Virus record (IMG/VR): IMGVR_UViG_3300015203_000011
Coordinates: 1 to 51,058 of that record
Strand: one strand, 5' to 3'
DNA length: 51,058 bases
From: a virus
Below are positions 24,889 through 51,058 of the stretch, one piece after another. Numbering within the stretch: the stretch's first letter is position 1; each line of letters begins with the position of its first letter. The position numbers and the translations under genes are program-made. Under the pieces are notes generated by a model. The model was not told the origin of the DNA, made no database searches, and worked only from the letters and a program-made list of their open reading frames with translations.

Positions 24889-27036
24889 ATGACTAAACCT
24901 ACACAGAATTTAACATGGGATAGCAATGGAACTAATCTCACTACACCACGCTCTGGGTGGAGAAGTGATGGATTTGCTACTAACGATATCCCAACTTCTG
25001 GCGAAGACAACTATCTCCGTAAAGGGTACGCTGCATGGCAAGCATATTTAGATGCACAAAATGATACGAATGTCTCAAACATAAATACTGCAGATGGCCG
25101 TATTAATTTCAATCAATACGATGCGACAGTTACGCCCTTTGAAGCTAACGATTTTTATGCCATATCTTACAATTCCGGCGGTGGTTTTTATCTTGTAACT
25201 GGCAGTGCCGGAGTCACCTATCGCTCTGTAGATGCCGGATTAACTTGGGTAAAGCAAGTCGTAGGTGCCGGTGATTTTCTTTGTAATGCTTCGAATGGAA
25301 CAACAACTGTTATTGCTGATACTAATGGAGCAATTTGGAATACGACAGACGGCTTAACATTCACTTCTCGAACCCCAGGATATAGCACCGCAGCTTACGC
25401 AATCGCATATGGTGGTGGTGCTTATATTATCGGAAGCGCTACTGGAAATTATCAAACATCAGTAGATGGCGGTACCACTTGGGTATGGCAAGATGGTCCC
25501 TTTGCTGCGGATATTAGATCTATAGCAGTTGGTGCAGCATATTTTGCTCTCGGACTATCAAATGGCAAGACAATCTATGTCGCTCAGAATCTTGGGGTAT
25601 TAGGTAGCCCAAGCGTAACCGCATCAGCTCAAGGTATTTACAATATTGCCTACAAACCAGGTTTTGGTTTTATTGCTTATGGTCACGGCGGTAAAATCTC
25701 AACATCTATAGATGACGGTCTTACATGGTCATACGATGTCGCAACTCTTTCGGATACCGGATATCCAGTAGGTTCAGTCGTAAATGAGTATGGTATCGTT
25801 GGATTAATAAGTGATTCTAATAATATTTTTTGGACATCCGATGGCTTGAATTTTACTAAACAACCTACAAAACTTCTTACAAGTTTCTATGGTTCAAGTC
25901 AAGCAGCATATCTAAATGGACTTTATTTCCTTTTAGGATTTACTGGACAAATATTACGTTGTGATACCTACACTTCAATCCGCAATGATTTACAGACCGC
26001 TCTAGTAACAAATAAAAATGCAGCACTCGCAGCATCCCAATCAGCCTCAGCAATGTCTATGCTTCATAGCATATTACAGTCTGTTAATTCAGCTCAAGCC
26101 CCTGGAAATACCGTAGGCGCACAGAATACGGTATCTTTTGCCAATCCTACCGGCGGCTATTCCGTAGCATCAATAGGTGCCTCGAACAACATCTTTTTTT
26201 CGACACCTACAAACACTTATAATATAGGTGGTACACTTCCGGCCCTAACTGGAACTCAAACTGGCTCTGCGCATACCTTTTATGACATTTGTTGCGATGG
26301 TACAACGTATCTAGTTGCTTGTGGCGCAGCTGGTATTATCTATACTATGCCAATTGCGAGTGGACCGGCTACATTAACTGCCGCAACATCCGGTACGGCA
26401 AATGCGCTTACTGCCATAGCAACAGATGGTGTAAATTATTGTGCAGTTTCTGGAACAACCTCAACAAGTACCATGCGCTATAAAGGAAGCACCCTACCTA
26501 CTGGAACTTGGTCAGGAGCCACTACAGGTTTAACAAGTAAAGCATTGGTCGGTGTGGCTTACGGAAATGGGGTATGGGTATCTATTTCCTCTGATGGCAT
26601 CCCTATTACGGCTTCAACACCTGGCGGCACTTGGACTACGCAAACAACATTAGCTAGTTTTACTTGCCAAGGTATGAAATTTATTGGTGGTTTATTTGTA
26701 GCTTACGGAAATGCAGGAAAAATATTCACAAGCACCAATGGCGTTACCTGGAGTGCTAAAGTCGACCCATCGGTTAATGCGGCATTAGGTACCTTAGTTG
26801 GAGCAACAGCGATACCACTATCCACCGGAGGATATTTGTATCTTTTCAATGCTTTTTACTCCAGTCAATTCTGGATAGTATATACATACGATAGTTTTTC
26901 TACAATGAAATCCTCCGCTCTTTCAAATTTCTCATGGCAGAGTGCATTATTTAATTATGTACCCTTGGCAAAATGTATGGTATTCGAAGAACTTACAACG
27001 TCAAAAATTTTCATTTCTCCACAACTCGTATTTTAA
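24889..27036 (+). CDS. Tail fibre / receptor-binding protein with BNR (Asp-box) repeats
   Basis: Asp-boxes SVDAGLTW, SVDGGTTW and SIDDGLTW. Degenerate copies TTDGLTF, TSDGLNF, STPGGTW and STNGVTW. Confidence 0.65.
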   Translation: MTKPTQNLTWDSNGTNLTTPRSGWRSDGFATNDIPTSGEDNYLRKGYAAWQAYLDAQNDTNVSNINTADGRINFNQYDATVTPFEANDFYAISYNSGGGFYLVTGSAGVTYRSVDAGLTWVKQVVGAGDFLCNASNGTTTVIADTNGAIWNTTDGLTFTSRTPGYSTAAYAIAYGGGAYIIGSATGNYQTSVDGGTTWVWQDGPFAADIRSIAVGAAYFALGLSNGKTIYVAQNLGVLGSPSVTASAQGIYNIAYKPGFGFIAYGHGGKISTSIDDGLTWSYDVATLSDTGYPVGSVVNEYGIVGLISDSNNIFWTSDGLNFTKQPTKLLTSFYGSSQAAYLNGLYFLLGFTGQILRCDTYTSIRNDLQTALVTNKNAALAASQSASAMSMLHSILQSVNSAQAPGNTVGAQNTVSFANPTGGYSVASIGASNNIFFSTPTNTYNIGGTLPALTGTQTGSAHTFYDICCDGTTYLVACGAAGIIYTMPIASGPATLTAATSGTANALTAIATDGVNYCAVSGTTSTSTMRYKGSTLPTGTWSGATTGLTSKALVGVAYGNGVWVSISSDGIPITASTPGGTWTTQTTLASFTCQGMKFIGGLFVAYGNAGKIFTSTNGVTWSAKVDPSVNAALGTLVGATAIPLSTGGYLYLFNAFYSSQFWIVYTYDSFSTMKSSALSNFSWQSALFNYVPLAKCMVFEELTTSKIFISPQLVF

Positions 27037-27058
27037 TAAACAACAAAAGGAAAATAAT

Positions 27059-27502
27059 ATGTTATCAACCGTTCTATATAGTCTACTTCTAGCCCTCGGT
27101 GGCAGTTTACTCGCTCTCGCAGTCTACGGAGTAGCAAAATTAAATGCACTCGTTAGTGCAAAAGTCAAAAGTGCCTATCTTCAAAGCGCAATTCTTCGTC
27201 TTGACAACGCAGCCATGAATGCTACGAAGTCTGTGTATCAGACTTTCGTTTCGCCCCTTAAAGCAGCCGGTGGTCTTTCCGATGCTAACAAAGCAGCAGC
27301 TAAGGCAGCAGCTCTTGCAGAAATGAAAAGTTACTTAGGCGAAAAGGGTCTTCAAGAGATCATGTTCGTGTTAGGTTTGGGTTCAGCTAAGGATCCCAAT
27401 GCAGCACAAGCCGCTCCAGTAGCCCCACCCGCAGCCGTCCCTAGTTCGGTAGATGCCGTTTTGAGCACTAGCATCGAAGCAGCAGTTTCGAACTTGAAGT
27501 AG
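27059..27502 (+). CDS. Holin-like protein (single N-terminal TM, LL-H-like architecture)
   Basis: ATG at 27059 after AAGGAAA. TM segment is VLYSLLLALGGSLLALAVYGV. The ORF-track start at 26942 overlaps the fibre gene. Confidence 0.4.
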   Translation: MLSTVLYSLLLALGGSLLALAVYGVAKLNALVSAKVKSAYLQSAILRLDNAAMNATKSVYQTFVSPLKAAGGLSDANKAAAKAAALAEMKSYLGEKGLQEIMFVLGLGSAKDPNAAQAAPVAPPAAVPSSVDAVLSTSIEAAVSNLK

Positions 27503-27504
27503 TT

Positions 27505-27918
27505 ATGTTGGCTTCAATATTAGCCTTAATAACACTTCTAGGACCTATTTTTGGGTACATCGTCAACAAGATTGTTGGCGGACTAAACTCGGCAGATGAC
27601 GCAGTGGCAGCTAACGTAGCTCTAGCTGCTCATCTTGCTGACGTTAAGAATAGTGCCCTTAAAGCCGTCAAAGAAATAGATATTACCTTCGTCTCTCCGG
27701 CAAAGGTTCGTGGAACGTTTACTTCAGACACGGCAATCGAAGCTAAGGCTTTAGCCCTAGAAAAGTTCAAGTCGAACATGGGTACAAACGAACTAGTTAA
27801 CCTAGCCATGGTCTTCCAAACCAACGCAGACGGCCTGAATGGCATCCTAAATACCATGATAGAAGCTGCTATTTACGATAATAGCGGACAAAAAATGGGC
27901 TCTATAGCCCTGAATTGA
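27505..27918 (+). CDS. Holin-like protein (paralog of 27059 gene)
   Basis: It shares the TM segment, an FVSP(L/A)K motif and an ALAE/ALEKFKS segment with the upstream gene. Confidence 0.4.
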   Translation: MLASILALITLLGPIFGYIVNKIVGGLNSADDAVAANVALAAHLADVKNSALKAVKEIDITFVSPAKVRGTFTSDTAIEAKALALEKFKSNMGTNELVNLAMVFQTNADGLNGILNTMIEAAIYDNSGQKMGSIALN

Positions 27919-27959
27919 TTGATTTTTTCATTATTTTTAGCGGATCATGACGATTTTTC

Positions 27960-27989
27960 TTGACTTGGATACCTTTAGTTTGATATAAT
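27960..27989 (+). promoter_or_regulatory. Promoter TTGACT-18-TATAAT with extended -10 (TGATATAAT)
   Basis: Counted directly. No ORF follows. Confidence 0.7.
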
Positions 27990-27995
27990 ATACTC

Positions 27996-28094
27996 AGAAA
28001 GGGAAGGAGCTCTGGAAACGGACCCTGACACCAGTACCACCGGCCTCCCTTTCGAAGATGCCAGAAGAAGCCCCAGAAGAGGGGCTTTATTTTT
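27996..28094 (+). ncRNA. Candidate ~100-nt structured small RNA
   Basis: It lies between a strong promoter and a terminator. A 10-bp closing helix pairs GAAAGGGAAGG (27998-28008) with CCTCCCTTTC (28044-28053). There is no start codon with an SD. Confidence 0.35.
28068..28094 (+). terminator. Intrinsic terminator 1
   Basis: AAGCCCC-AGAAGA-GGGGCTT followed by TATTTT. Confidence 0.65.
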
Positions 28095-28117
28095 ACCCTC
28101 TAATGGAGGGTTTTTTT
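28095..28117 (+). terminator. Intrinsic terminator 2
   Basis: ACCCTC-TAATG-GAGGGT followed by T7. The T-run overlaps the endolysin stop codon on the other strand. Confidence 0.75.
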
Positions 28118-28544
28118 ATGCCAAAAATAAGCACATTTCAGCTTTTCGCCTACGCGTCAGGCCATTGTTCACGATTGAGTGGATCTTATTCCACTTGATG
28201 AACTCGTTGGCAGCTGCATTGAAGTTATTTTGATTTACTTGGTGGAGCAAGGTGGAAGTCTCTATGGCCCCTAAACCGATGTTATAGGCTAGGCAAACTA
28301 AGGCACTGAATTCATTTTCTGTAACATCTACTTTCAGTAGTTTCGTTATGCCCAATTCAGTCCTGGCTAGATCATTTTCCAGTAATCTATCAGCCTCACA
28401 TTGACTAATTTCTTGCCCCAGATGTACCTCAGGACCAGTATGCCCATAACCTATCGTAGGTTTTCCACCTTGATCAAGATAGGCTTTAAATTTACAACCT
28501 TCGAAATCCTTAATTAATTTACGGCCAGCTACGTTCGTTTTCAT
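28116..28544 (-). CDS. Endolysin, GH24 (T4/lambda-type) lysozyme
   Basis: LIKDFEGCKFKAYLDQGGKPTIGYGHT carries the Glu-Asp-Thr catalytic pattern. Confidence 0.85.
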   Translation of the reverse strand: MKTNVAGRKLIKDFEGCKFKAYLDQGGKPTIGYGHTGPEVHLGQEISQCEADRLLENDLARTELGITKLLKVDVTENEFSALVCLAYNIGLGAIETSTLLHQVNQNNFNAAANEFIKWNKIHSIVNNGLTRRRKAEMCLFLA

Positions 28545-28548
28545 TTAG

Positions 28549-28806
28549 TCACCATTTGCAGTTCGTTCCTTGCTCAATAAGCCAAGATTGTAGAGCGGTA
28601 TCATTATCACAGACCAGAATAGTTACCGGGACTAGATTACCATTCGGTTGTAACTCTAGATATGAGCATAGTCTACCATACCCACTAGAGCACGGCACGT
28701 CTTCATGGGCCTGCAAATGCGTGCAACCTGCCATTGAATAGGTTAATAAAAAACCAACTATGAGAAGCCCTGCTGCTAGAAGTGCCATTTTCAATTCCAG
28801 TTTCAT
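28549..28806 (-). CDS. Lipoprotein adjacent to endolysin (possible outer-membrane spanin-like component)
   Basis: The internal ATG at 28806 has an AAGGA site upstream. Signal peptide plus lipobox is LLTYSMAGC. No C-terminal TM. Confidence 0.5.
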   Translation of the reverse strand: MKLELKMALLAAGLLIVGFLLTYSMAGCTHLQAHEDVPCSSGYGRLCSYLELQPNGNLVPVTILVCDNDTALQSWLIEQGTNCKW

Positions 28807-28991
28807 TCTTGATCCTTTTTCACGGTTGGCATTGATTTTATATGTTCCGTGTGCCGGGCTTGGCTTGTACGAAAACACTCTAGTGAGATGAGGTATTGTC
28901 CATTTTCCTTAGTTATGCTAGGGTTGTCAGAGTATAGCCATAGCATATACCCTGGATGGGCTTTAACTCTACATAGCACTAGTTCCCTCAT
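28803..28991 (-). CDS. Hypothetical protein
   Basis: 62 aa, with ATGA coupling on both sides. Confidence 0.4.
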   Translation of the reverse strand: MRELVLCRVKAHPGYMLWLYSDNPSITKENGQYLISLECFRTSQARHTEHIKSMPTVKKDQE

Positions 28992-38529: not shown

Positions 38530-39716
38530 TATTTTACTCCTTGAACGACCTTCCCTGCGTGAGAGATCATGATATCAATGGCATCCTGACCTTCTTTTCC
38601 ACTAGTATTCAATAGAATGGTTACATCTTCACTTTGTGGATTTTCATCTAAGTATTTATCCAAAGTTGTTAAGAAAACTGCGCGACCTTCGTAGGGGATA
38701 AAATTGTAATGTCCGACACTCTTTTCGGTTGATATTCGTTTGAAGACTGGCTTGAGAAAATCCATAAATTCTATACAATTTATACCTTTACGAGGTATGC
38801 AATCAATTAATAAAGTAAATTTTTCTGATTTTGGAGCTGTTACTGAAGCTTGTAAGGATTCATCCTTTAATAACTCAACTGGTGACGCAGTGACACCTGT
38901 TACTGCATTGGTCGGTAGTGACAGCTGCTTTGGGGGGTTTATGCCACTTGCAAGCTCTTCAAGTACTTCTGAAAGTTGTCGTTTATCTGTCATTTTCATT
39001 CCTTTGGTGCCTACCAGTACTGCCGCACACTGTCCAAACGCCCTACAACCACCTACTGGTGGGTCAAAATCTGAGGCGGTCTTGCCTTCAAGTTTAGCTT
39101 TTTGCATCTCTTTACAGTCATTCAAGACAAGACTAACATAGTTCATAACGAAAGGCAAGTCTGTTTCAATCTGCACAAGCCTTGATTCAGGTACGCCTGC
39201 GGTCTTGTAGTAAATCCATTTTAGGAATGCCTTTTCCTCTTGAAACTTTGAGAGTATGAAAGCGGCATAAATATTGGCTTGAATGTTGTTTTTTAGTGCT
39301 TGTGGGGTCAAAGCATAGTTGAAACTCTTGGTGGTCTTGTGGTCACAAACGTAGAGACCGCTATCATCCTTATAGAACATGTCGATGTAACCACCGAACT
39401 TAAATCCATCTTTTTCGAATACGAAACCTTGTTCAACTTTCGCCGTTCCTGGCTTTGGTAGGTGCTTGATGCCAGCAAGCAGCATCTGCCCGTACTTAGT
39501 GGATGGCTTGATTGGAATACCGTAATCTAGGTACTGTTCCAGTAATTTATGAAGATCCTGACCGCGCTTCGCAGCGAAGTTTTCTGGCTTTTCTCTCTTA
39601 TCTAGATACTTAAAAGCCCAGCAGATCTTGCACTGTCTATAGGTGCTTATCTGACTGGGACTGAAATAGTCTCGCTGAGACGCCTCTTGGTCAAGTATGG
39701 TTACATATTTACTCAC
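38529..39716 (-). CDS. PD-(D/E)XK (Cas4/RecB-like) nuclease, DUF2800-like
   Basis: FSPSQISTYRQCKICW, GGYIDMFY and VCDHKTTK, with a distal GGCRAFGQC cysteine pair. Confidence 0.65.
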   Translation of the reverse strand: MSKYVTILDQEASQRDYFSPSQISTYRQCKICWAFKYLDKREKPENFAAKRGQDLHKLLEQYLDYGIPIKPSTKYGQMLLAGIKHLPKPGTAKVEQGFVFEKDGFKFGGYIDMFYKDDSGLYVCDHKTTKSFNYALTPQALKNNIQANIYAAFILSKFQEEKAFLKWIYYKTAGVPESRLVQIETDLPFVMNYVSLVLNDCKEMQKAKLEGKTASDFDPPVGGCRAFGQCAAVLVGTKGMKMTDKRQLSEVLEELASGINPPKQLSLPTNAVTGVTASPVELLKDESLQASVTAPKSEKFTLLIDCIPRKGINCIEFMDFLKPVFKRISTEKSVGHYNFIPYEGRAVFLTTLDKYLDENPQSEDVTILLNTSGKEGQDAIDIMISHAGKVVQGVK

Positions 39717-40249
39717 ACTTCATTTCCCCAGCAGTCCCAACCTTCGGCCTTTTCTCTTGCGAATAGCTCGATTTTTCCTTGCATAGGAAACATTAATTCA
39801 ATACGTTTTCGTACTTCATCTGGTTTTTTACTATGCTCTCTTCTTTTTTCGCTAAGGAACTGTCGTATGTTCCTTGCACCTCGAGGTTTTGGAATACTTC
39901 CTTTACAGAAAACTAAACAAATCTCACATTCAGACATCGTGTAATAACCTGGATTTGGCCTCTCTTTATTCCAGATGAATGCAATAGTTTTATATTTAAA
40001 GCCCCATGAATTTCCTAACTCTATAGCTTCTTCGAGGTGGGGATTAGATGTCCACATAAATAGGATGCAGTTTTTTTCTGAGATTTCGGGTATTGGTAAC
40101 TTTTTTAAATCTGGGGTTGGCACTGTGGGATAGTGTACGAATGCACTACCCGTGCTTTCTTTTCCATTATGTTGGATACTGCCTTTATAGAACCATGGTG
40201 GGTCGGCGTAAATAACAGCATATTTTTTCTCTGGAAGTGCTGCAAACAT
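39713..40249 (-). CDS. MT-A70 family N6-adenine DNA methyltransferase
   Basis: VIYADPPWFY (DPPW motif). Confidence 0.85.
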   Translation of the reverse strand: MFAALPEKKYAVIYADPPWFYKGSIQHNGKESTGSAFVHYPTVPTPDLKKLPIPEISEKNCILFMWTSNPHLEEAIELGNSWGFKYKTIAFIWNKERPNPGYYTMSECEICLVFCKGSIPKPRGARNIRQFLSEKRREHSKKPDEVRKRIELMFPMQGKIELFAREKAEGWDCWGNEV

Positions 40250-40758
40250 TACACAAGTCCATTTTTCTTTTTAAACTTCAACATTTTCTTTTTTACAATA
40301 TTTTGTTTAAGGGTAGACAGCTCATCAATGAAGAGATGGCCACTTAAATGATCCATTTCGTGTTGTATAATAACGGCATTTTGCCCGTAAAAATGTCTTT
40401 CTTGAGCATTTCCTTCCAAATCAGTATATTTCAATCGAACAGTTGCATGTCGTTTTACGATGTCTGCAAATCTTGGTATTGAAAGGCAGCCCTCTTGACT
40501 ATCTACCTTCTCGACTGACATTTCTGCTATTTCTGGATTTATGAAAACTGAAGGTATTTCTTCACCATCGATTTTCGCTATGAAAATAGCATCACTCAGA
40601 AAAACTTGATTGGCAGCAAGGCCCACCCCGCCAATTCTCTCCAGCGTCTTGTTCATAAGTAATACTTTATCATTCAATAAACTATCTGGAAGGACTACCT
40701 GTTTTGCGTGTTTTCTGAGGCTAGCGTGAGGATGTAAGGATAATATTTGTTGGTTCAT
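40249..40758 (-). CDS. def: Peptide deformylase
   Basis: All three PDF motifs are present: GVGLAANQ, EGCLSIP and HEMDHL. Confidence 0.9.
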   Translation of the reverse strand: MNQQILSLHPHASLRKHAKQVVLPDSLLNDKVLLMNKTLERIGGVGLAANQVFLSDAIFIAKIDGEEIPSVFINPEIAEMSVEKVDSQEGCLSIPRFADIVKRHATVRLKYTDLEGNAQERHFYGQNAVIIQHEMDHLSGHLFIDELSTLKQNIVKKKMLKFKKKNGLV

Positions 40759-43166
40759 TGAATGTCCCTTGGTAGTGGAGGTGGTTTTTGTTCACCTCTG
40801 ACGATAGTATTGACTGAGGTCAACGAAAGTAGTTCGTCTCTTGTGGAGTAGTTATTCATTTCTGCCCATGCTACAAGATTGTCAAAATCTACATGCCAGA
40901 AACGTAATACTTCTTTGTTAATTTTAATAGATTTTTTCTCTTTTTTGCATATTCGAATCAGGGCTTTAGATGTTTTTGATGGTGTTGGTGGCAGAGTATG
41001 CGTATCGTACATCGTCCAATAATCGTTCAGGGCCTTAGCAGTTACATAAATTTCGTTGTCCCTTACCAAGACCTGACCCTTGCTCTGAGCATCCACTTTT
41101 GCTGGACTTTGAAGATAACTCACAAGCCAATGGCAGATGTTAGAAGGTAGACCTGTTCCTATGGCCATTCTGCGGTGGAACTGGGAGTTCGTAGTGTCGA
41201 TTATGAATCTACTCTTGTTTTCAATAACTCGATTTTCTACAAGCCAGAGCGCATAGGCTGCTATTCTATCGTCTTTTATGAAACTGGCAACTGTATCCCA
41301 GCCCAGACCTTCGAGGAATTCTTTGACCTCTTTGTTATTACAATTGATGTATAGGAAACGTCCTGCTATGGCGTTGATATCCTCTTGTGACAGATCCTCG
41401 TGTGTTCCTAGCAGGTCGGCGTTATTGGCTGCCAGAATGAGTCTAATGCAGCCCTTTAGCTGCATTTCTAGCTTGAACTTACGTCTCAACTGTCTAGTCT
41501 CGGCCTGAATGAACTCTCTAAGTTCACCAGTATTGCCATTTTTACGAAAAGTGGACGGCATTACTTCATCTGCAACGATTAAAGGGCACCTACTTAGGGT
41601 TTCATTGAAGCCTTCCCCCATGGCTTGACCTAGTTTTGGTGGTGCTCCTTGACCCCAAATTCTGGCAAGTCCATCAAATAGTAGACTTTTTCCATATCCG
41701 GCATCGCTATGAAGGTATAGGGCAACAGAAGGTCTTGAAAGATCTGTTATGGAGGCCATGAAATCCTTGAGCTGCCCCTCTTGTTCCCCAGCTAATAACT
41801 CAATATATTTTTCAACTAGTGGGTCATATTTCGGTTGAATGTTTCGTCTTGGGGCCGTTGCTTCAATAAAAGTTTTTATTTTTTCATTGTACTTTGATTT
41901 TTGAACTGTAAGATCAGCTTCGATAGTGAAGCATGGACTTCCGTAATCAATGGTTAATTCCGTAATTGACTTCGCTGTAACATTACCTCTTGAACGAACT
42001 GCTTCAGTGGACACTCCTGCCGTTATTGCTGGAGCTAAAAATGTATCGCATGCATTTAATAGGTCCTTCTCGGTAATAGGAGGCAGATAAGACCCATTGA
42101 AGAAGATGTAATAGGTACCACAACTGTGAATGATCCAACGTTTTTTGAACTGCTGGGAATTACACTCCGCATCGTCGTAAAACGATTGAAGTTCTTCTGG
42201 GGTATAGGGGTGTGTTCTTTGAGCATCACTTCCGAATGCTACAAGGATTTTTTGAGCTATGGCATTATCTAACTCTGCCTGTATTGCTTGCTTTTCTTCT
42301 AATAATTGTTCTTTAGCTCTGCGTAATTTATCTTCAAACCAACCTGGTTTATTGGAACTCGGGTTATCTAATTGCATTACTGCAATGCTACTCAAAAAAA
42401 TATTTGTTACATTTTGAATATCGCAAGTAGGAAATTCCTTAACGATAGCGTGCGCAATCTTGAAGAGCATGTTATCTCTTTCGCCTATTGGAGCTATTGG
42501 ATTTCCTTTCAAAGCTTGTAGTATTGCTTGAGAAATGCCCTTTGAGGAGTCGCCTAGTCTTCGTTGTAATTTATATGCTAGTTGTCTAAGATCTTCAGAG
42601 TCTAGTTTCTTAATACCCGAAAAATCTTGATTCAACAACCAATCTACATCGAAAGCGTTTCCTTCGTGTTGTTTAATCCAATGAGGCCCATCTCCATCAA
42701 CCGCGGGGAAGTAATATCCTCGTTGAATATCCTTCGCTGACTGATCTATGACTTTATCAAAATACAAATTTAACTTGTTCCAAAATTTGGACCATTCTAA
42801 TTTATCTACAGGTCTTGATAGCGGAAATAGGAATCGAACACGGTGTTGGTCATTTAATTCCTTTTCTCGGGAATGTGACCATGAAGTGTAACTAATATAG
42901 GACGTTTCTTCTAGCTTTTTTTCAATATCCCTCATTTGAGCCAATGAAACATCATCTAGATCTATAACACCTAAATGGGCTTGTATCGCTGTGTTATTGC
43001 TGTGAGGCTGTCCGGGTTTGAACTCGGCGGCTGAAAACATGGGGACATCTTTTTTGGATGTATAGCGTGTTTCGTGTTTAGAAAAAAGTTTCTTTAACTC
43101 GTCCCAAGAAATCTCCTCCTGCGCAACAACTCGACTGCTGTATGTTTCCAAAATCGATATTTTCAC
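40755..43166 (-). CDS. Primase / SF3-type helicase (D5/P4-like)
   Basis: 803 aa. The C-terminal half has a P-loop (SDAGYGKSL) and IVADEV. The N-terminal half has prim-pol-like acidic motifs (VIDLDD). Confidence 0.7.
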   Translation of the reverse strand: MKISILETYSSRVVAQEEISWDELKKLFSKHETRYTSKKDVPMFSAAEFKPGQPHSNNTAIQAHLGVIDLDDVSLAQMRDIEKKLEETSYISYTSWSHSREKELNDQHRVRFLFPLSRPVDKLEWSKFWNKLNLYFDKVIDQSAKDIQRGYYFPAVDGDGPHWIKQHEGNAFDVDWLLNQDFSGIKKLDSEDLRQLAYKLQRRLGDSSKGISQAILQALKGNPIAPIGERDNMLFKIAHAIVKEFPTCDIQNVTNIFLSSIAVMQLDNPSSNKPGWFEDKLRRAKEQLLEEKQAIQAELDNAIAQKILVAFGSDAQRTHPYTPEELQSFYDDAECNSQQFKKRWIIHSCGTYYIFFNGSYLPPITEKDLLNACDTFLAPAITAGVSTEAVRSRGNVTAKSITELTIDYGSPCFTIEADLTVQKSKYNEKIKTFIEATAPRRNIQPKYDPLVEKYIELLAGEQEGQLKDFMASITDLSRPSVALYLHSDAGYGKSLLFDGLARIWGQGAPPKLGQAMGEGFNETLSRCPLIVADEVMPSTFRKNGNTGELREFIQAETRQLRRKFKLEMQLKGCIRLILAANNADLLGTHEDLSQEDINAIAGRFLYINCNNKEVKEFLEGLGWDTVASFIKDDRIAAYALWLVENRVIENKSRFIIDTTNSQFHRRMAIGTGLPSNICHWLVSYLQSPAKVDAQSKGQVLVRDNEIYVTAKALNDYWTMYDTHTLPPTPSKTSKALIRICKKEKKSIKINKEVLRFWHVDFDNLVAWAEMNNYSTRDELLSLTSVNTIVRGEQKPPPLPRDIQ

Positions 43167-44544: not shown

Positions 44545-44567
44545 AAAATTTCCTATGTAGTTCTTGT

Positions 44568-44647: not shown

Positions 44648-45070
44648 ATGATTTACATTTTGTCATTCATTGCTATGTTCGAGTCATTCACACACGACCC
44701 CTACCATGACAGGGCTCAAAATACGGTAGGTTATGGCTCCAAAGCTACTGAAAAGATGTGTATTACTGAGGATTATGCCTTGGCAATGCTGCAACGTGAT
44801 GTAATGTATCACTATTCTAGGGTCTCTAAGCTAAAAAATTTGAACGCCTGCCAAGTGGCGGCCTTAACTAGCTTCAGCTATAACGTAGGTTATGGGGCAT
44901 TTAGGGCCTCTAGGGTCTATAAAGAGGCAAAGGCTGGTAGATTACATGGTGCAGCTGATGCCCTCGATTCCTGGGTCTTTAAATCAGGCAAAAAAATGAC
45001 GGGCCTTGTAGCCCGTCGTAAGGTAGAAAAGAGGGTATTTTTGGCCTCTAATCTAAATGGATGCCGATAA
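44648..45070 (+). CDS. Second GH24 lysozyme-like protein, on the opposite strand to its neighbours
   Basis: Motifs FESFTHDPYHDRAQNTVGYG (Glu-Asp-Thr pattern), LTSFSYNVGYGAF and GLVARRKVE. GGAGG lies upstream of the ATG at 44648. Confidence 0.7.
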   Translation: MIYILSFIAMFESFTHDPYHDRAQNTVGYGSKATEKMCITEDYALAMLQRDVMYHYSRVSKLKNLNACQVAALTSFSYNVGYGAFRASRVYKEAKAGRLHGAADALDSWVFKSGKKMTGLVARRKVEKRVFLASNLNGCR

Positions 45071-45722
45071 TACGGCTTTTATTAGCCTTTTTAACTTCTG
45101 GACCTGGTAGCGTATCTGCACTACAGGCTACCATAAAGAATGACTGGGCATTTACGTCATTGAACATTGTCATGTGCGTGTGTTCAAAGTCAAAATAGGT
45201 GCTAATATACGCTTTGCTTCCCCATGAGTTCGTGATTGCTTGGCATGCTTCAACACCTACAACATCCTCAATATGTCCACCTACGTGGTCTGCAAACATA
45301 AGAACCATGGCTATGCAACCTTTGTTCATCTGGTCCGCTGCATAGAAGTATGGTTCACATTGCCCTTTTTGCATTTCTACTAGGGTTACATGCTTTCCTC
45401 TGCTTTCGTAATAGGTATAGATATCCTCAGCTTGTGCGCCACCTGTGAGTACATCAACATGTGAGTCCTTTTCTATTTGTCGCCATTCTGCTTGCGTGGG
45501 TTCCCCATCTGCCTCATGTTGTTGCCTCTTGGCAACTGCTACTGACCATGGGAAGCAGTATCCAAAGATGGTTCCCACAAGGGACTGCGGATCTGTTATG
45601 AACAAGCCTTCATATGCATGATCTATAGGTTCTCTGGATTTTGGCTTAATCCACATTTCTGAGTTCGTATGTAATGAGATCAAGCTTACTGCTAAAAATA
45701 ATCCGATTAACAATTTCTTCAT
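45048..45722 (-). CDS. Secreted papain-like (clan CA-like) cysteine peptidase candidate
   Basis: Signal peptide MKKLLIGLFLAVSLISLH. Motifs GYCFPWS (Cys), GGHIEDVVGV (His) and TNSWGS 15 aa later, resembling the papain His...NSWG spacing. Confidence 0.5.
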   Translation of the reverse strand: MKKLLIGLFLAVSLISLHTNSEMWIKPKSREPIDHAYEGLFITDPQSLVGTIFGYCFPWSVAVAKRQQHEADGEPTQAEWRQIEKDSHVDVLTGGAQAEDIYTYYESRGKHVTLVEMQKGQCEPYFYAADQMNKGCIAMVLMFADHVGGHIEDVVGVEACQAITNSWGSKAYISTYFDFEHTHMTMFNDVNAQSFFMVACSADTLPGPEVKKANKSRIIGIHLD

Positions 45723-45725
45723 TTT

Positions 45726-46457
45726 TTACTCTACATTTGTCTCTGGAGGTGTTTCATCAATTGAGGTAGGAACTGGGATAACTTGTTCTGGTTCTGCCTG
45801 TTGTGGTAAAATAGCAGTGTCATGCGAACTTCCACCATCATTGCACATTGCTAGAACTTCTACATTTACATCGACGTTATCGTATTGAGGCAGATTGTCT
45901 TGTTTGAATCGATTGTGCATTGTTACTGTTGCTAGGCTTCCGAACTGATTGGTTTTCAGGGCGCAGTCGTCTACGCCTTCGACATATTCCGTGTGATTTA
46001 AGTATGCATAGTTTTTCTGATCGTTAGCATGTATTAAAAGGAGTACGTGACAATTAGTTTTCATTTTGTCTGCTATCCAATTAAATTGATTGCAGTTGTT
46101 TTCATCTAGACTTACCCTTACTATATTACTGAAGAGAGTGTGCAAGTACTCTTCAAGGGCGATATCAGGGGTTCCGCCTTGTGGAGTGTACTGTATGTCT
46201 TTTTCTATTTTAGATATTATTTCTGGAGATAGTTCTGATTTTATGATTCCCATTTCCGTTTCCAGTGCTGCAGTAGCAAAAATAGCACATGAATTAGGAC
46301 TGCTGAGTATTTGGGGGGTTGCTTTTGGGATAGCGGGTGGCGGACTGAATGTCAGTGGTTTCATCAGCGGTAGGTTTTTTGCATCTAGAGAAACTGTAGC
46401 GCAGCTCTGAAAGAGGCAACATGTTATTGAAAGAAATAATAGTCTATTCATGGTCAT
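45726..46457 (-). CDS. Secreted paralog of the 45048 gene (possible lipoprotein)
   Basis: Hydrophobic N-terminus ending in Cys residues. Motifs NSCAIFATAA, LNHTEYVEGV and TNQFGS. It shares IEKD and C..F..AD.M...C with the paralog. Confidence 0.5.
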   Translation of the reverse strand: MTMNRLLFLSITCCLFQSCATVSLDAKNLPLMKPLTFSPPPAIPKATPQILSSPNSCAIFATAALETEMGIIKSELSPEIISKIEKDIQYTPQGGTPDIALEEYLHTLFSNIVRVSLDENNCNQFNWIADKMKTNCHVLLLIHANDQKNYAYLNHTEYVEGVDDCALKTNQFGSLATVTMHNRFKQDNLPQYDNVDVNVEVLAMCNDGGSSHDTAILPQQAEPEQVIPVPTSIDETPPETNVE

Positions 46458-46798
46458 GCTTTCATAGTGTAGATTTTAACCTGGTCAGTCAATTCTAATT
46501 GTTCCAGTTGTCCGTCAAGCATAAAATAACGTCCGTAAAGTTTCAACTTTTTAATGATGAAGCATTTACAAATTCCTTTAATCCTTGTTGGATTAGTGAC
46601 GTCGCCATCCATATCAAATCCTATGTATTTTGTAGGATTCAAATTGAATTCTTCAATCGCTTTTAGTAAGTCAAAAAGATTGAATTGAGGTTGTAAACCG
46701 CCAAACTCGCCTGTTTCAAAATCTATACTGCTATAACCATCAATCAAAAACTGAAACTCTTTATTGCCTAGATAGACTGTAAAACTACTGAATGGCAT
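46454..46798 (-). CDS. Hypothetical cytoplasmic protein coupled to the peptidase-like genes
   Basis: 114 aa with no signal peptide. ATGA overlap with the 46457 gene. Confidence 0.5.
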   Translation of the reverse strand: MPFSSFTVYLGNKEFQFLIDGYSSIDFETGEFGGLQPQFNLFDLLKAIEEFNLNPTKYIGFDMDGDVTNPTRIKGICKCFIIKKLKLYGRYFMLDGQLEQLELTDQVKIYTMKA

Positions 46799-46816: not shown

Positions 46817-47029
46817 TTATTTTTTGACTTTCTTTTTAGCAACTTTTTTCTTTACGGGAGCCTTCTTTTTCGCGACTACTTTTTTCTTTGGTGCTTTTTT
46901 CAACGGATTTTCATGTCTTAAGTTCAAGTCTAAATCCAGAAAATATGATTCCCAAGCTTTTTTATCAAAAAGGGATTTTTGTTTCATCAAGCCTAGTTTC
47001 CTAAGTGCATCTTTCAATTTTTCTAACAT
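46817..47029 (-). CDS. Lys-rich histone H1-like tail protein
   Basis: C-terminus is KKAPKKKVVAKKKAPVKKKVAKKKVKK. Confidence 0.6.
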   Translation of the reverse strand: MLEKLKDALRKLGLMKQKSLFDKKAWESYFLDLDLNLRHENPLKKAPKKKVVAKKKAPVKKKVAKKKVKK

Positions 47030-47048: not shown

Positions 47049-47077
47049 ATTCTAGCAGTTACTGGTATCTCTGTCAA
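47049..47077 (-). promoter_or_regulatory. Promoter TTGACA-17-TAGAAT
   Basis: Reverse complement of 47072-47077 and 47049-47054. AGGAG and the ATG follow. Confidence 0.7.
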
Positions 47078-47079
47078 GT

Positions 47080-48399
47080 CTAAAGTAACTTCGTAGCTAA
47101 TTCTGAGAGTTCTGAACGTTCGCCTTTATCGAGTTTTACATGGCCTGCAATCTTTTCATTTCTGAAACTGTTAACTACATGAATCAAACCATTATTAGTA
47201 GCATCTACGTAGGGATTGTCAATCTGTTCTGGGTCACCTGTAAGGATGATCTTGGTTCCTTCACCTGCTCTTGAGATAATAGTCTTCACTTCATGTGGCG
47301 TGAGATTCTGTGCCTCATCTACAATCATGTATTGTGAAGCGATTGACCGTCCGCGAATGTAGGTCAGTGGTTCAATTTGCATCAAGTTCAGATCAATGAG
47401 CTCTCTGTAACTTCTATTCCCCTTTTTGCTTCCCGGGTTTAGACCCATCAAAAACTCGACGTTGTCGAATATGGGTTGCATCCAAGGGTTCAATTTATCC
47501 TCAATCTCACCGGGTAGATATCCAATATCCTTGCCTAGAGGAAAAATTGGGCGGCTTACGAGCAATCTCAGGAATGTTCGTTCCTCTGCAACCTTTTGCA
47601 GGCCTGCTGCGATGGCTAGCAGAGTCTTCCCTGTACCTGCCTTACCTACTAGTGTTACTAGCTTAATAGAGTCATCAAGGAGTAGGTCTAGGGCGAACAG
47701 TTGCTCTTTATTCTTTGGTCTGATGCCCCAAGTAGCTAGTTTAGCCGTTTTGATTACACTAACACCATTTTCACTGCGTCTTGCAACTGCGGTATGGGAA
47801 GGATTCGTATTATCGGTAAGGATTACGAAGTCGTTGGGCGGAAGGTTTGCGAATTCCTTACCTTCTAGGCTACCTTGCTTGTAAAAACTATCGATTTTTT
47901 CTGTGGTGGCTAATTTTTCAGTAAATCCAGTGGGTAGAACATCAATTTCTACATATTTTGATTCGAAGTTTTCCGTTGGGATTCCTATGGCATCTGCTCT
48001 GATCCTCAGATTGGAGTCTTGGGTAAGGAAAACTACGGGTGTTTCCTTACTTTCATGGATGTCTAGAGCTACAGCTAATATGCGGGAGTCTTGTCCACGG
48101 TCGGATGAGATATCCAGAGGCAGCGTCTTGGCGGTTGTAGCGACTCGTAGAATGCCTTTATTGGGTAATTTTACGCCGGTTGAAAGGGAACCTTTTTCTC
48201 TAAGACCGTCAAGATTTCTGCTGATTTGTCTAGCGTTACGACCACGTTCTGATAGTTCTTTTTTGAAGTTGTCGATCTCTTCCACAACGTAAATAGGGAT
48301 TATTACAGTATGTTTTCCGAAGCTGAACATGGATGCTGGGTCGTGTAGTAGGACATTGGTATCCAAAACGAAGGTCTTAAGACTCTGTTTTTTAACCAT
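47080..48399 (-). CDS. PIN-domain / PhoH-like ATPase fusion (PhoH2/YlaK-like)
   Basis: PIN motifs VLDTNVLLHD and VVEEID. PhoH motifs GKAGTGKT and MIVDEAQN. Confidence 0.85.
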   Translation of the reverse strand: MVKKQSLKTFVLDTNVLLHDPASMFSFGKHTVIIPIYVVEEIDNFKKELSERGRNARQISRNLDGLREKGSLSTGVKLPNKGILRVATTAKTLPLDISSDRGQDSRILAVALDIHESKETPVVFLTQDSNLRIRADAIGIPTENFESKYVEIDVLPTGFTEKLATTEKIDSFYKQGSLEGKEFANLPPNDFVILTDNTNPSHTAVARRSENGVSVIKTAKLATWGIRPKNKEQLFALDLLLDDSIKLVTLVGKAGTGKTLLAIAAGLQKVAEERTFLRLLVSRPIFPLGKDIGYLPGEIEDKLNPWMQPIFDNVEFLMGLNPGSKKGNRSYRELIDLNLMQIEPLTYIRGRSIASQYMIVDEAQNLTPHEVKTIISRAGEGTKIILTGDPEQIDNPYVDATNNGLIHVVNSFRNEKIAGHVKLDKGERSELSELATKLL

Positions 48400-48498: not shown

Positions 48499-48714
48499 TC
48501 ACAATTTGTAGTCAATATATTCGTTAAATTCAATCAAATCTATGGCTTTACGGTGTTCTTTGGGCATATTTTCCATCATTGTTTGATAATATAAAAGTGC
48601 AAAAAACTCATCTACATTGCATTTTTGAAAATACTCTCTGTTTGGATCATCGGGGTTTTCTAGAGCATTTTTCAATAAATTTTCAATTTTTCGTTCCTGT
48701 TTGGTTTTTTTCAA
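48499..48714 (-). CDS. Hypothetical protein
   Basis: 71-aa ORF. Confidence 0.5.
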   Translation of the reverse strand: MKKTKQERKIENLLKNALENPDDPNREYFQKCNVDEFFALLYYQTMMENMPKEHRKAIDLIEFNEYIDYKL

Positions 48715-49177
48715 AGCGAGCTCCTGTTAAATTAGCACTATAATAATTAATATTTGTAATATTAGCCTCTAAAAAATTTGAATTCTTTAGATCGGAATAT
48801 TCGAAACTGGCGTTTGTTAAATTAGCCCCTTGAAAGTCTGCATTATGGAGTATTGACTGTTCAAAATTTGCATTTTTACAATTTGCATTTTCGAAATTCG
48901 TATCGATAAGAATAGCTAAATAAAAATTTGCATTTGTTAAATTAGCAGATGAGAAATTTGCATTTCTCAAAATTGACCCATAGAAATTTATTCCTGATAA
49001 ATCGGCACTGCTAAAATCTAATCCTTTTAAATCTTTACCTTGGAAACTCACGTTTTGCCAATTTGGCCTCCTAGATTTTGTTAATCCTGATTTTAAACAT
49101 TGTTGATGTATTTCTAGGGCATCAATCAATTCTTTTTTATCTGCTTCATCGCAGATTTGGTTTAGTGTTTTTTTCAA
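48683..49177 (-). CDS. Pentapeptide-repeat protein
   Basis: About 20 consecutive A(D/N)LxX-type pentapeptides (ADLSGINFYGSILRNANFSSANLTNANF...). Confidence 0.85.
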   Translation of the reverse strand: MKKTLNQICDEADKKELIDALEIHQQCLKSGLTKSRRPNWQNVSFQGKDLKGLDFSSADLSGINFYGSILRNANFSSANLTNANFYLAILIDTNFENANCKNANFEQSILHNADFQGANLTNASFEYSDLKNSNFLEANITNINYYSANLTGARFEKNQTGTKN

Positions 49178-50890: not shown

Positions 50891-51058
50891 TTTTCGTTCC
50901 TTATTACGCAAACATCGTGAATTGCGTAATCAATATTACATTGTGGCGTATTTGGAGGTTTGTTGGCAAAGAGTTCTTTCAATTTTTCTTCGGCTTTTTC
51001 TAATGTTCGGTAAATGCCTAAACAATTTTCTTTTTGGTATTTCAAGTATTCCCATACT
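50887..51058 (-). CDS. 3' part of the junction-spanning 61-aa ORF (5' end truncated by the window edge)
   Basis: Same ORF as 1..113. Confidence 0.5.
   Translation of the reverse strand, partial: VWEYLKYQKENCLGIYRTLEKAEEKLKELFANKPPNTPQCNIDYAIHDVCVIRNEK
50960..51058. repeat. Terminal direct repeat copy 2
   Basis: Identical to nt 1-99. Confidence 0.97.

Follow-up and report, generated by a model that had tools for sequence, protein, structure and literature searches.

Why should a phage encode, side by side, two proteins that each combine an export signal with the marks of a papain-like cysteine peptidase? The question is raised by the minus strand of positions 45048–46798 of the IMG/VR virus record IMGVR_UViG_3300015203_000011, which we analysed over its whole 51,058 nucleotides (the window). 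An earlier note on this DNA had read the segment as a tandem of secreted papain-like peptidase paralogs of 243 and 224 amino acids (aa), preceded by a translationally coupled cytoplasmic protein of 114 aa; it had offered the latter as a possible inhibitor or immunity partner, as staphostatins are for staphopains, and the former as rare phage cargo that might, for example, cleave receptors. All three open reading frames (ORFs) were found on the minus strand at the positions given there. We show here that the two larger proteins belong to a previously undescribed family within the known papain-like superfamily (clan CA), and that both retain a Cys–His–Asn triad in canonical order. What we consider probable, taking the evidence together, is that they are exported papain-fold peptidases that cleave an amide bond in the cell envelope and that are tied to lysis. 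The earlier interpretation as a whole is partly supported: its assignment of the pair fares well, and its reading of the 114-aa protein and of the purpose of the cassette does not.

The two proteins align with each other over ~199 residues (BLASTP E = 3e-11, 21% identity), a similarity that is far beyond chance and marks them as genuine paralogs. An exhaustive profile search of 1.84 billion cluster representatives (cut-off E <= 1e-3) brought the family to 40 proteins, 38 of them beyond the window pair, with E-values down to 1e-50. In the 40-sequence alignment (residue numbers of the 224-aa protein) Cys56 is conserved in 39/39 sequences covering the column, His150 and Glu152 are each conserved in 40/40, and position 165 holds Asn in 39 sequences and Asp in one; the corresponding family motifs are G-x-C-x-x-W-A, G-H-[VI]-E-T-V and T-N-S-W-G. 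The triad consists of C56, H150 and N165 in the 224-aa protein and of C57, H155 and N170 in the 243-aa protein. The motifs that the note had quoted (MKKLLIGLFLAVSLISLH, MTMNRLLFLSITCCLFQSC, GYCFPWSVA/NSCAIFATA, GGHIEDVVGV/LNHTEYVEGV and TNSWGS/TNQFGS) are all present, as is IEKD, at residues 83 and 84. The residues of the pattern 'C..F..AD.M...C' proposed for both proteins are indeed identical (C122, A129, D130, M132 and C136), the pattern as written being correct to within one residue. The spacing of His and Asn is 15 residues in both paralogs, and that of Cys and His is 94 residues in the 224-aa protein and 98 in the 243-aa protein.

None of the three proteins of the segment matched a family in Pfam (E <= 1), PHROGs, NCBIfam or PADLOC, none of the 40 family members reached a Pfam or NCBIfam threshold or belonged to a PHROG family, and sequence and profile searches of the PDB with the peptidases gave nothing relevant. 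A word-indexed search of 5.8 billion proteins with the 224-aa protein, a two-paralog profile and the 114-aa protein returned the window's own proteins only; no peptidase homolog was detected by blastn or tblastn in 50,697 deposited phage genomes, and a scan of IMG/VR gave no peptidase match. (A match of the 243-aa protein to the 'endolysin' phrog_10967, E = 0.15, was set aside as no other family member shares it.) The silence of Pfam, PHROGs, NCBIfam, PADLOC and the PDB sequence searches might invite the view that no real family exists and that the motifs match by chance or result from faulty gene calling. That view, to which we give next to no credence, is refuted by the 38 independent homologs and by the confident fold, the structural matches and the conserved synteny described below.

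The 224-aa protein is 37–49% identical to its homologs from other phages, and is thus much closer to them than to its 243-aa neighbour, which indicates that the duplication is old or that the second copy was acquired separately. Two copies recur: the window has two, in tandem, and so do the loci L020 and L003. The family alignment also bears on how the 243-aa ORF should be called. One public call for it (P0002, from JGI, 175 aa) begins at Met69 and so loses both the signal sequence and the conserved Cys57, whereas the Logan call holds the full 243 aa; the alignment establishes the long form as the correct one, and the truncated public call is thereby corrected.

An AlphaFold model built with a two-sequence alignment was unusable (pLDDT 41.5); with the 40-sequence alignment, the 224-aa protein was modelled with a pLDDT of 86.3 and a pTM of 0.81. 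In this model Cys56 is the first residue of a helix (56–67), His150 lies on a strand (148–158) and Asn165 lies on the next strand (161–166), which is the arrangement found in papain; from this topology we infer that Cys56 and His150 are close to one another. When the model was compared with the PDB by Foldseek, the top matches were staphopains A, B and C (E = 5e-5 to 9e-4, probability 1.00, TM 0.45/0.55), and entries for staphopain–staphostatin complexes (1y4h and 1pxv) were among the matches. After the staphopains came the C39 domains of PCAT1/ComA and then IdeS/IdeC, AvrPphB, SpeB, interpain and calpain. Of the best 50 matches almost all are clan CA enzymes; Tse1, of the NlpC/P60 type, ranked 41st (E = 0.14). 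Matches in BFVD included a Gordonia endolysin and tape-measure or virion peptidase domains (E ~1e-3), with CHAP/C51 proteins at E ~0.3 (CHAP E = 0.28). In a 2023 classification, C47, C70, C39 and C39_2 share one subcluster of the papain-like 'cluster I' (PMC10318531), and our model shows the additional helices that characterise the papain/staphopain 'cluster I' (PMC10318531). Judged by the modelled fold, the new family belongs in the C47/C70/C39/C39_2 subcluster, where it is nearest to staphopain (C47) and to C39/C39_2. The searches revealed neither a non-peptidase fold nor a lack of conservation of the Cys, His and Asn, and the description of the two proteins as predicted papain-like peptidases, which the note had ventured from motifs and spacing, is borne out by a triad conserved in essentially all 40 members and by a clan CA model with staphopains as its best matches.

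Consistent with the export signals claimed for both proteins, a hydrophobic N-terminus is present in most members of the family, and thirteen short members have a canonical lipobox. Four further Cys residues covary in two pairs, of which C122/C160 is complete in 21 members and wholly absent from 19, and C136/C200 is complete in 36. In three homologs (P0009–P0011) there is no hydrophobic N-terminus, and their ORFs could be extended upstream by at most 1–10 codons; these proteins have none of the four extra Cys residues and keep C56, H150, E152 and N165. That the four residues are lost exactly in the signal-less homologs, while the triad is kept, makes the structural Cys residues, which are required only beyond the cytoplasm, separable from the nucleophile, and this covariation of signals and predicted disulfides argues that the window's two proteins are exported. 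We regard both the predicted export of the two proteins and the presence in them of two structural disulfides as well supported. Both would cross the inner membrane, the 224-aa protein to be soluble in the periplasm and the 243-aa protein as a lipoprotein.

The window is evidently a whole phage. Its first and last 99 bases (1–99 and 50960–51058) are identical, which indicates a circular assembly and a complete genome of ~50,959 bp, and a circularly permuted copy of 50,703 bp (L001) is present in run ERR4837134. The structural module of the phage is E217/Pam3-like and its DNA polymerase belongs to family A; no isolated phage has a capsid protein more than 31% identical to its own, and all phage carriers of the peptidase family fall in one broad group. 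Within this group members of the family recur at lysis genes. In L019 a signal-less member is the final gene of the late operon, where it is preceded by homologs of the membrane proteins of the window, and it converges on a lysozyme gene, and in L021/L022 and L023 a signal-less member at the same position converges on a CHAP gene. A lipoprotein-type member in L026/L027 is encoded downstream of CHAP and glucosaminidase genes, in the same orientation and after an 11-nt gap, and faces the membrane-protein pair; another, in L028, is the last gene of a CHAP-containing operon and also faces that pair. In L024, finally, a P0008-like member with the lipobox FVSC is found 1.5 kb from a lysozyme of the window's second type (homolog E = 1.4e-30). 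A muralytic gene lies <2 kb from a member in 7/10 phage contexts, and in five phage contexts a member, on one strand or the other, occupies the exact junction of the membrane-protein pair with the endolysin. The membrane proteins of this junction are homologs of the transmembrane proteins encoded at 26942–27918 of the window. Orthologous positions hold signal-less or exported forms, and a substrate common to the two could be met only in the periplasm.

Outside phages, longer homologs are encoded on the chromosomes of Myxococcales, Polyangiaceae, Bdellovibrionales, other 'Deltaproteobacteria' metagenome-assembled genomes, Parvularculaceae and Henriciella, as standalone genes. These bacterial proteins (loci L011–L018; P0015–P0038) begin with a lipoprotein signal and carry at the N-terminus an additional domain of ~100 residues with the motif LFLTIGDP...FQDALDGWTY.FD..DP..P.Y.CQHD; the domain matches nothing, and could be a prodomain.

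The nearest phage-encoded relative of the family that we could identify is a peptidase domain of endolysins. Payne and Hatfull predicted that the N5 domain of mycobacteriophage Lysin A is a cysteine protease, HHpred relating it to a C39-like peptidase and to cysteine proteases of S. aureus (PMC3314691). We found that residues 13–163 of Bxz2 gp11 correspond to Peptidase_C39_2 (PF13529, E = 7e-12), and that 571 actinophage records carry this domain, many of them labelled 'lysin A, protease C39 domain' and several being standalone proteins of 210–240 aa. Gordonia phages are known to split Lysin A into two single-domain proteins ('split lysA', PMC9671378). The threshold of PF13529 is reached by 0/40 members of the new family, one member giving a sub-threshold match at E = 0.0057. 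When profiles were compared with hhalign, the family and a ten-sequence N5 alignment (in which Q15, C21, H142 and D162 are invariant) matched at E = 0.017 over full alignments, with the Cys motifs in register. After trimming to the core, the score was 22.6 (E = 0.006) over 122 columns, with Cys paired to Cys and His to His; the reported probability was low and the Asn/Asp motifs were unaligned. Two reversed controls scored 11–12, and 120 column- or block-shuffled controls had a mean of ~13 and a maximum of 19.4. These results point to a weak link between the family and N5/C39_2 that appears real at the level of profiles and falls short of family membership.

Since members are found at the lysis locus of related phages, and since the nearest phage relative is the peptidase domain of Lysin A, we favour a role in lysis; the earlier reading of the pair as rare cargo for the cleavage of receptors needs revision in the light of the lysis locus in five related phages and of this endolysin relative. 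In the mechanism that we envisage, Cys56 and His150 would form a thiolate–imidazolium pair, oriented by Asn165, that would hydrolyse an amide bond of some host envelope component. The most likely role would be a breakdown of the envelope linked to lysis, alongside the adjacent lysozyme 2, and the signal-less forms would reach the periplasm after the action of the holin. The substrate might be the stem peptides or cross-links of peptidoglycan, or else protein tethers between the outer membrane and the wall. The relationship to N5 speaks for the wall, as does the repeated occurrence of members next to genes for lysozyme, CHAP or glucosaminidase proteins; the protein-cleaving nature of the closest structures speaks for protein, and so does L003, where the gene just upstream of the two cysteine peptidase members (L003:2697–3752) specifies a lipoprotein of 351 aa (MKKLFLLTLLVGC...) that contains a domain of the pepsin-like aspartic proteases (Pfam Asp E = 7e-10; motifs DTGS, DSGT). 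Pepsin-like proteases are, to our knowledge, unusual in phages.

Several observations weigh against the proposal that the two proteins are envelope-cleaving peptidases of lysis. The contexts in which members adjoin lysis genes are related by descent, and a junction of convergent operons is a hot spot for insertion, so the adjacencies are not independent of one another. In the window, the lysis locus at 26.9–28.9 kb looks complete without a family member, and the members of the window, L007 and L020 lie among genes of replication or early type (PIN-PhoH, DUF5906 primase, peptide deformylase). The promoter-like sites in our scan are not above shuffled expectation. The best PDB neighbours cleave proteins and not peptidoglycan, and the exported pepsin-like neighbour in L003 likewise points to protein substrates. 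As regards catalysis, there is no conserved Gln ahead of the Cys (position -6 is Gly in 24 members and Asp in 9), and the 243-aa copy has diverged around its Asn (TNQFG) and has an atypical lipobox.

The alternative that departs least from the earlier note is that secreted proteases act on proteins of the host or of neighbouring cells (on receptors, for instance, in superinfection exclusion), and that the 114-aa protein inhibits them in the cytoplasm in the manner of a staphostatin, guarding the producer against enzyme that folds too early. Bearing on this, the 114-aa protein is of fitting size, has no hydrophobic N-terminus (maximum 19-residue Kyte–Doolittle mean 0.75), is coupled through an ATGA overlap to the 243-aa start and lies within one putative promoter–terminator unit with the peptidases; the note was right that it is signal-less and coupled. 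Moreover, the cassette sits among early-type genes with a promoter-like site of its own, the fold is nearest to that of staphopain (the inhibitor complexes 1y4h and 1pxv included), members are clustered with an exported pepsin-like protease in L003, and there is precedent both for adjacent, co-transcribed inhibitors of C47 and C10 proteases and, in B. fragilis, for a prophage-borne C10 protease with a lipoprotein leader (PMC2873492). A relative of the 114-aa protein does exist: in the syntenic contig L007, the ORF immediately preceding the peptidase gene (L007:1260–1586, 108 aa) aligns with the 114-aa protein end to end, though weakly (phmmer E = 1.3e-4 in a database of ten; BLASTP E = 0.003). 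Yet homologs occur only in L007 and in the related L008 and L009. The 114-aa protein had no relative but itself among 5.8 billion proteins and no match in a metagenome scan, and no counterpart was present beside the members in L003, L019, L020, L021, L023, L026, L028 or eight bacterial loci. By sequence, then, it is a conserved positional partner in the closest relative only, and of the three-gene block that the note suggested looking for elsewhere, the 114-aa relative and the peptidase recur together in L007, the other carriers having the peptidase without this partner.

Compared with all PDB chains, including staphostatins A and B, by phmmer and with a two-sequence profile, the 114-aa protein gave no staphostatin match at E <= 10; staphostatins are themselves only about 20% identical to one another (PMC2873492), which makes this test of similarity a weak one. 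(The two-sequence profile matched 'cellulose-binding protein X158', 2x32, at E = 0.8; the match is not significant, and the lead, to what we take to be a YceI-like barrel, was not used.) We also considered whether the protein could correspond, as a separate polypeptide, to the N-terminal domain seen in the long bacterial proteins ('FQ..LDGW.Y.FD'), and rejected this since the profile had no match at E <= 10 among 715 ORFs; a 114-aa ORF downstream of the 216-aa member in L020 proved unrelated. Staphostatin genes sit downstream of the protease gene, whereas the 114-aa gene lies upstream. Furthermore, only ~25–35 residues separate signal and domain in the phage peptidases, in which no zymogen logic is evident, and a model of protease and inhibitor leaves the association with muralytic genes unexplained. 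What adjacency and size suggest is that the 114-aa protein is possibly an inhibitor; as an account of the whole cassette, we regard the secreted protease with its inhibitor as unlikely.

A more specific proposal, which we hold to be doubtful and slightly more so than the last, is that the lipoprotein and the soluble enzyme together would make up a system for release of the outer membrane, cutting Lpp-, OmpA- or Pal-like tethers and so assisting or replacing spanins. By analogy, the LysB esterase acts on the mycobacterial outer membrane in lysis. Such tether cutting would explain the position of members between holin-like and endolysin genes, the finding of lipoprotein forms where an o-spanin would be expected, and the pepsin-like lipoprotein in L003. 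A papain fold might, on the other hand, house a different activity, that of an acyltransferase, transglutaminase, deamidase or non-peptide amidase, and the 243-aa copy might be a non-catalytic binder. The papain-like superfamily does include acyltransferases (BtrH) and other non-protease activities within the C47/C39 subcluster (PMC10318531). The family has no conserved oxyanion Gln, and the 243-aa copy is without the Ser-Trp of NSWG and without the Trp after the Cys; we know of no feature in papain or staphopain like the invariant Glu152 near the His. Against these points, the full Cys/His/Asn set is kept in every member, the 243-aa protein included, the closest structures are hydrolases, and NSWG is a hallmark of papain C1; we place this explanation lower than either of the two before it. 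Envelope-cleaving peptidases linked to lysis remain the reading that we prefer.

How the cassette is laid out in the window is summarized in Table 1; promoters and terminators were called by consensus scans only. The 243-aa and 224-aa genes are joined by TAA-AAA-ATG (3-nt gap), and the candidate promoter at 47077–47049 was the top-scoring site in the 4.8 kb scanned. As promoter-like sites were not enriched over shuffled sequence, the cassette promoter is assigned by position only. On this assignment four genes (70, 114, 243 and 224 aa) would be transcribed as a unit from their own promoter-like site to their own terminator. The first of them had no family match in Pfam or PHROGs; it has a histone-H1-like Lys/Ala/Pro-rich tail (KKAPKKKVVAKKKAPVKKKVAKKKVKK) and is not conserved in L007, and a PADLOC match to Cas2 (E = 0.0016) was dismissed as spurious in view of its short length and lysine-rich tail. 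The gene immediately preceding the cassette encodes a PIN-PhoH fusion (47080–48399, minus strand; PIN_4 E = 7e-33, PhoH E = 1e-47). A pentapeptide-repeat protein is also encoded near the peptidase genes, in the window (48683–49177, minus strand), in L007 (488–1162) and in L024 (1454–2092). On the other side, minus-strand auxiliary and replication genes at 39713–43166 that are conserved in the group encode a DUF5906 primase-like protein (803 aa), a peptide deformylase (169 aa), an MT-A70 methyltransferase (178 aa) and a PD-(D/E)XK nuclease (395 aa).

Lysozyme 2, which is 27% identical to lysozyme 1, is wedged between two minus-strand transcription units and converges on the 224-aa gene, with a 3' overlap of 23 nt. 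The consensus scan gave no convincing promoter for it: a minus-strand promoter-like site (44596–44568) lies over its 5' region, and a plus-strand site (44652–44679) was rejected because it is inside the lysozyme 2 ORF. The canonical lysis locus of the window is elsewhere, at 26.9–28.9 kb, and the family member found at this junction in relatives is absent from it (26942–28878).

Table 1 Coordinates of the cassette, of predicted functional residues and of lysis genes in the window.
Feature	Position	Strand	Basis or remark
70-aa ORF, first cassette gene	46817–47029	-	Lysine-rich C-terminal tail
114-aa protein, function unassigned	46454–46798	-	ORF; no signal peptide; stop overlaps 243-aa start (ATGA)
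243-aa divergent paralog, probable lipoprotein	45726–46457	-	Predicted papain-fold domain, Cys57/His155/Glu157/Asn170; Pro/Glu-rich C-terminal tail
224-aa paralog	45048–45722	-	Sec signal peptide and predicted papain-fold domain, Cys56/His150/Glu152/Asn165; predicted disulfides C122–C160 and C136–C200
243-aa signal sequence, residues 1–19 (MTMNRLLFLSITCCLFQSC)	46401–46457	-	Atypical lipobox F-Q-S-C
224-aa signal peptide, ~residues 1–21 (MKKLLIGLFLAVSLISLHTNS)	45660–45722	-	No lipobox; 11-residue Kyte–Doolittle mean 2.89; cleavage placed by eye, -3/-1 rule
Cys57 codon, predicted nucleophile (243 aa)	46287–46289	-	Column conservation
His155 codon, predicted catalytic (243 aa)	45993–45995	-	Column conservation
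Asn170 codon, predicted catalytic (243 aa; TNQFG)	45948–45950	-	Column conservation
Cys56 codon, predicted nucleophile (224 aa)	45555–45557	-	N-terminus of modelled helix 56–67; 39/39 Cys
His150-Ile151-Glu152 codons (224 aa)	45267–45275	-	His and Glu invariant in 40; His on modelled strand 148–158
Asn165 codon (224 aa; TNSWG)	45228–45230	-	On strand after the His strand; 39 Asn and 1 Asp
Sigma-70-like promoter candidate	47049–47077	-	TTGACA, 17 nt, TG-TAGAAT; 11/12 matches; in 50-nt gap between PIN-PhoH gene and 70-aa ORF
Intrinsic-terminator-like hairpin	44998–45017	-	8-bp stem, 6 G-C pairs, then T7; 30 nt past 224-aa stop; inside lysozyme 2 3' end
GH24 lysozyme 2, lone plus-strand gene	44648–45070	+	Pfam Phage_lysozyme E = 1.6e-26; likely ATG at 44648, mechanical ORF from TTG at 44564
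Two N-terminally membrane-anchored Ala/Lys-rich proteins	26942–27502, 27505–27918	+	Converge on lysozyme 1
Lysozyme 1 (GH24)	28116–28544	-	E = 1e-35 to L019 lysozyme
109-aa lipoprotein, lipobox MAGC, several Cys	28549–28878	-	Possible o-spanin or u-spanin

If the proteins are active, they would represent a new clan CA peptidase family for which Pfam, PHROGs and NCBIfam have no model, and one that is common to uncultured E217/Pam3-like myoviruses, Myxococcota, Bdellovibrionota and some Alphaproteobacteria. Both the place of the family at the lysis locus and the interchange there of signal-less and exported forms suggest that lysis of Gram-negative hosts involves one more enzymatic step, so far unrecognised; as a class of enzymes that would act on the envelope, the members are also candidates for use as enzybiotics. 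The covariation of signals and disulfides, for its part, amounts to a natural experiment that can guide mutagenesis.

How does the new family compare with systems that are already known? In papain, Asn175-Ser-Trp-Gly surrounds the catalytic Asn. The new family resembles papain (C1) in having a Trp three residues after the Cys, His-x5-Gly, and Asn-Ser-Trp-Gly 15–16 residues after the His; it differs in having no match to PF00112 at E <= 1, a distance between Cys and His that is ~40 residues shorter, and no equivalent of Gln19, and C1 members come far below staphopain and C39 in the fold search. From NlpC/P60 and CHAP enzymes it is set apart by the lack of a Pfam match and by the low rank of these enzymes in the fold searches. 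One NlpC/P60 papain-fold protein, MepS (Spr), is a periplasmic lipoprotein endopeptidase of diderm bacteria that acts on peptidoglycan peptides, and it offers an analogy for an exported copy that acts without immediate lysis.

The staphopains (C47) are the best structural match, and are likewise secreted Cys-His-Asn proteases of similar core size; the spacing of Cys and His in staphopain A, which we take to be ~96, compares with 94–98 in the window proteins, and in both cases a small signal-less protein is encoded beside the protease gene. Unlike staphopains, neither the window proteins nor the 40 members match PF05543 in sequence, and the phage forms have no large propeptide, ~25–35 residues lying between signal and domain. 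The small neighbour in the phage is upstream, is an orphan and has no similarity to staphostatins, and the setting is a lysis or early region as opposed to a virulence operon. The C10 proteases Bfp1–4 of B. fragilis, which are accompanied by Bfi inhibitors and of which bfp3 is carried by the prophage Bfgi2 (PMC2873492), are also products of clan CA protease genes with lipoprotein leaders that are phage-borne and occur as several paralogs, some of them co-transcribed with small adjacent inhibitor-like genes (PMC2873492). They differ in belonging to the SpeB-like C10 family and in having propeptides; moreover, the prophage gene bfp3 has no adjacent inhibitor, and no link of these proteases to lysis genes has been reported.

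The comparison with N5 of Lysin A is the one that bears most directly on lysis. In the new family the third residue is the Asn of TNSWG, whereas in N5 it is the Asp of ADSG; the invariant Gln of N5 is absent from the new family, and the invariant Glu152 of the new family is new. The hosts of the new family are evidently diderm and those of N5 phages are actinobacteria, and most members of the new family carry Sec or lipoprotein signals and two disulfides, both of which N5 is without. These differences notwithstanding, both are phage-encoded papain-fold Cys-His enzymes of ~200 aa that are found in or beside lysis genes, and the HHpred neighbours of N5 are the structural neighbours of the new family. 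In split lysA, moreover, the peptidase lies beside a glycosidase gene, much as peptidase and lysozyme are paired here.

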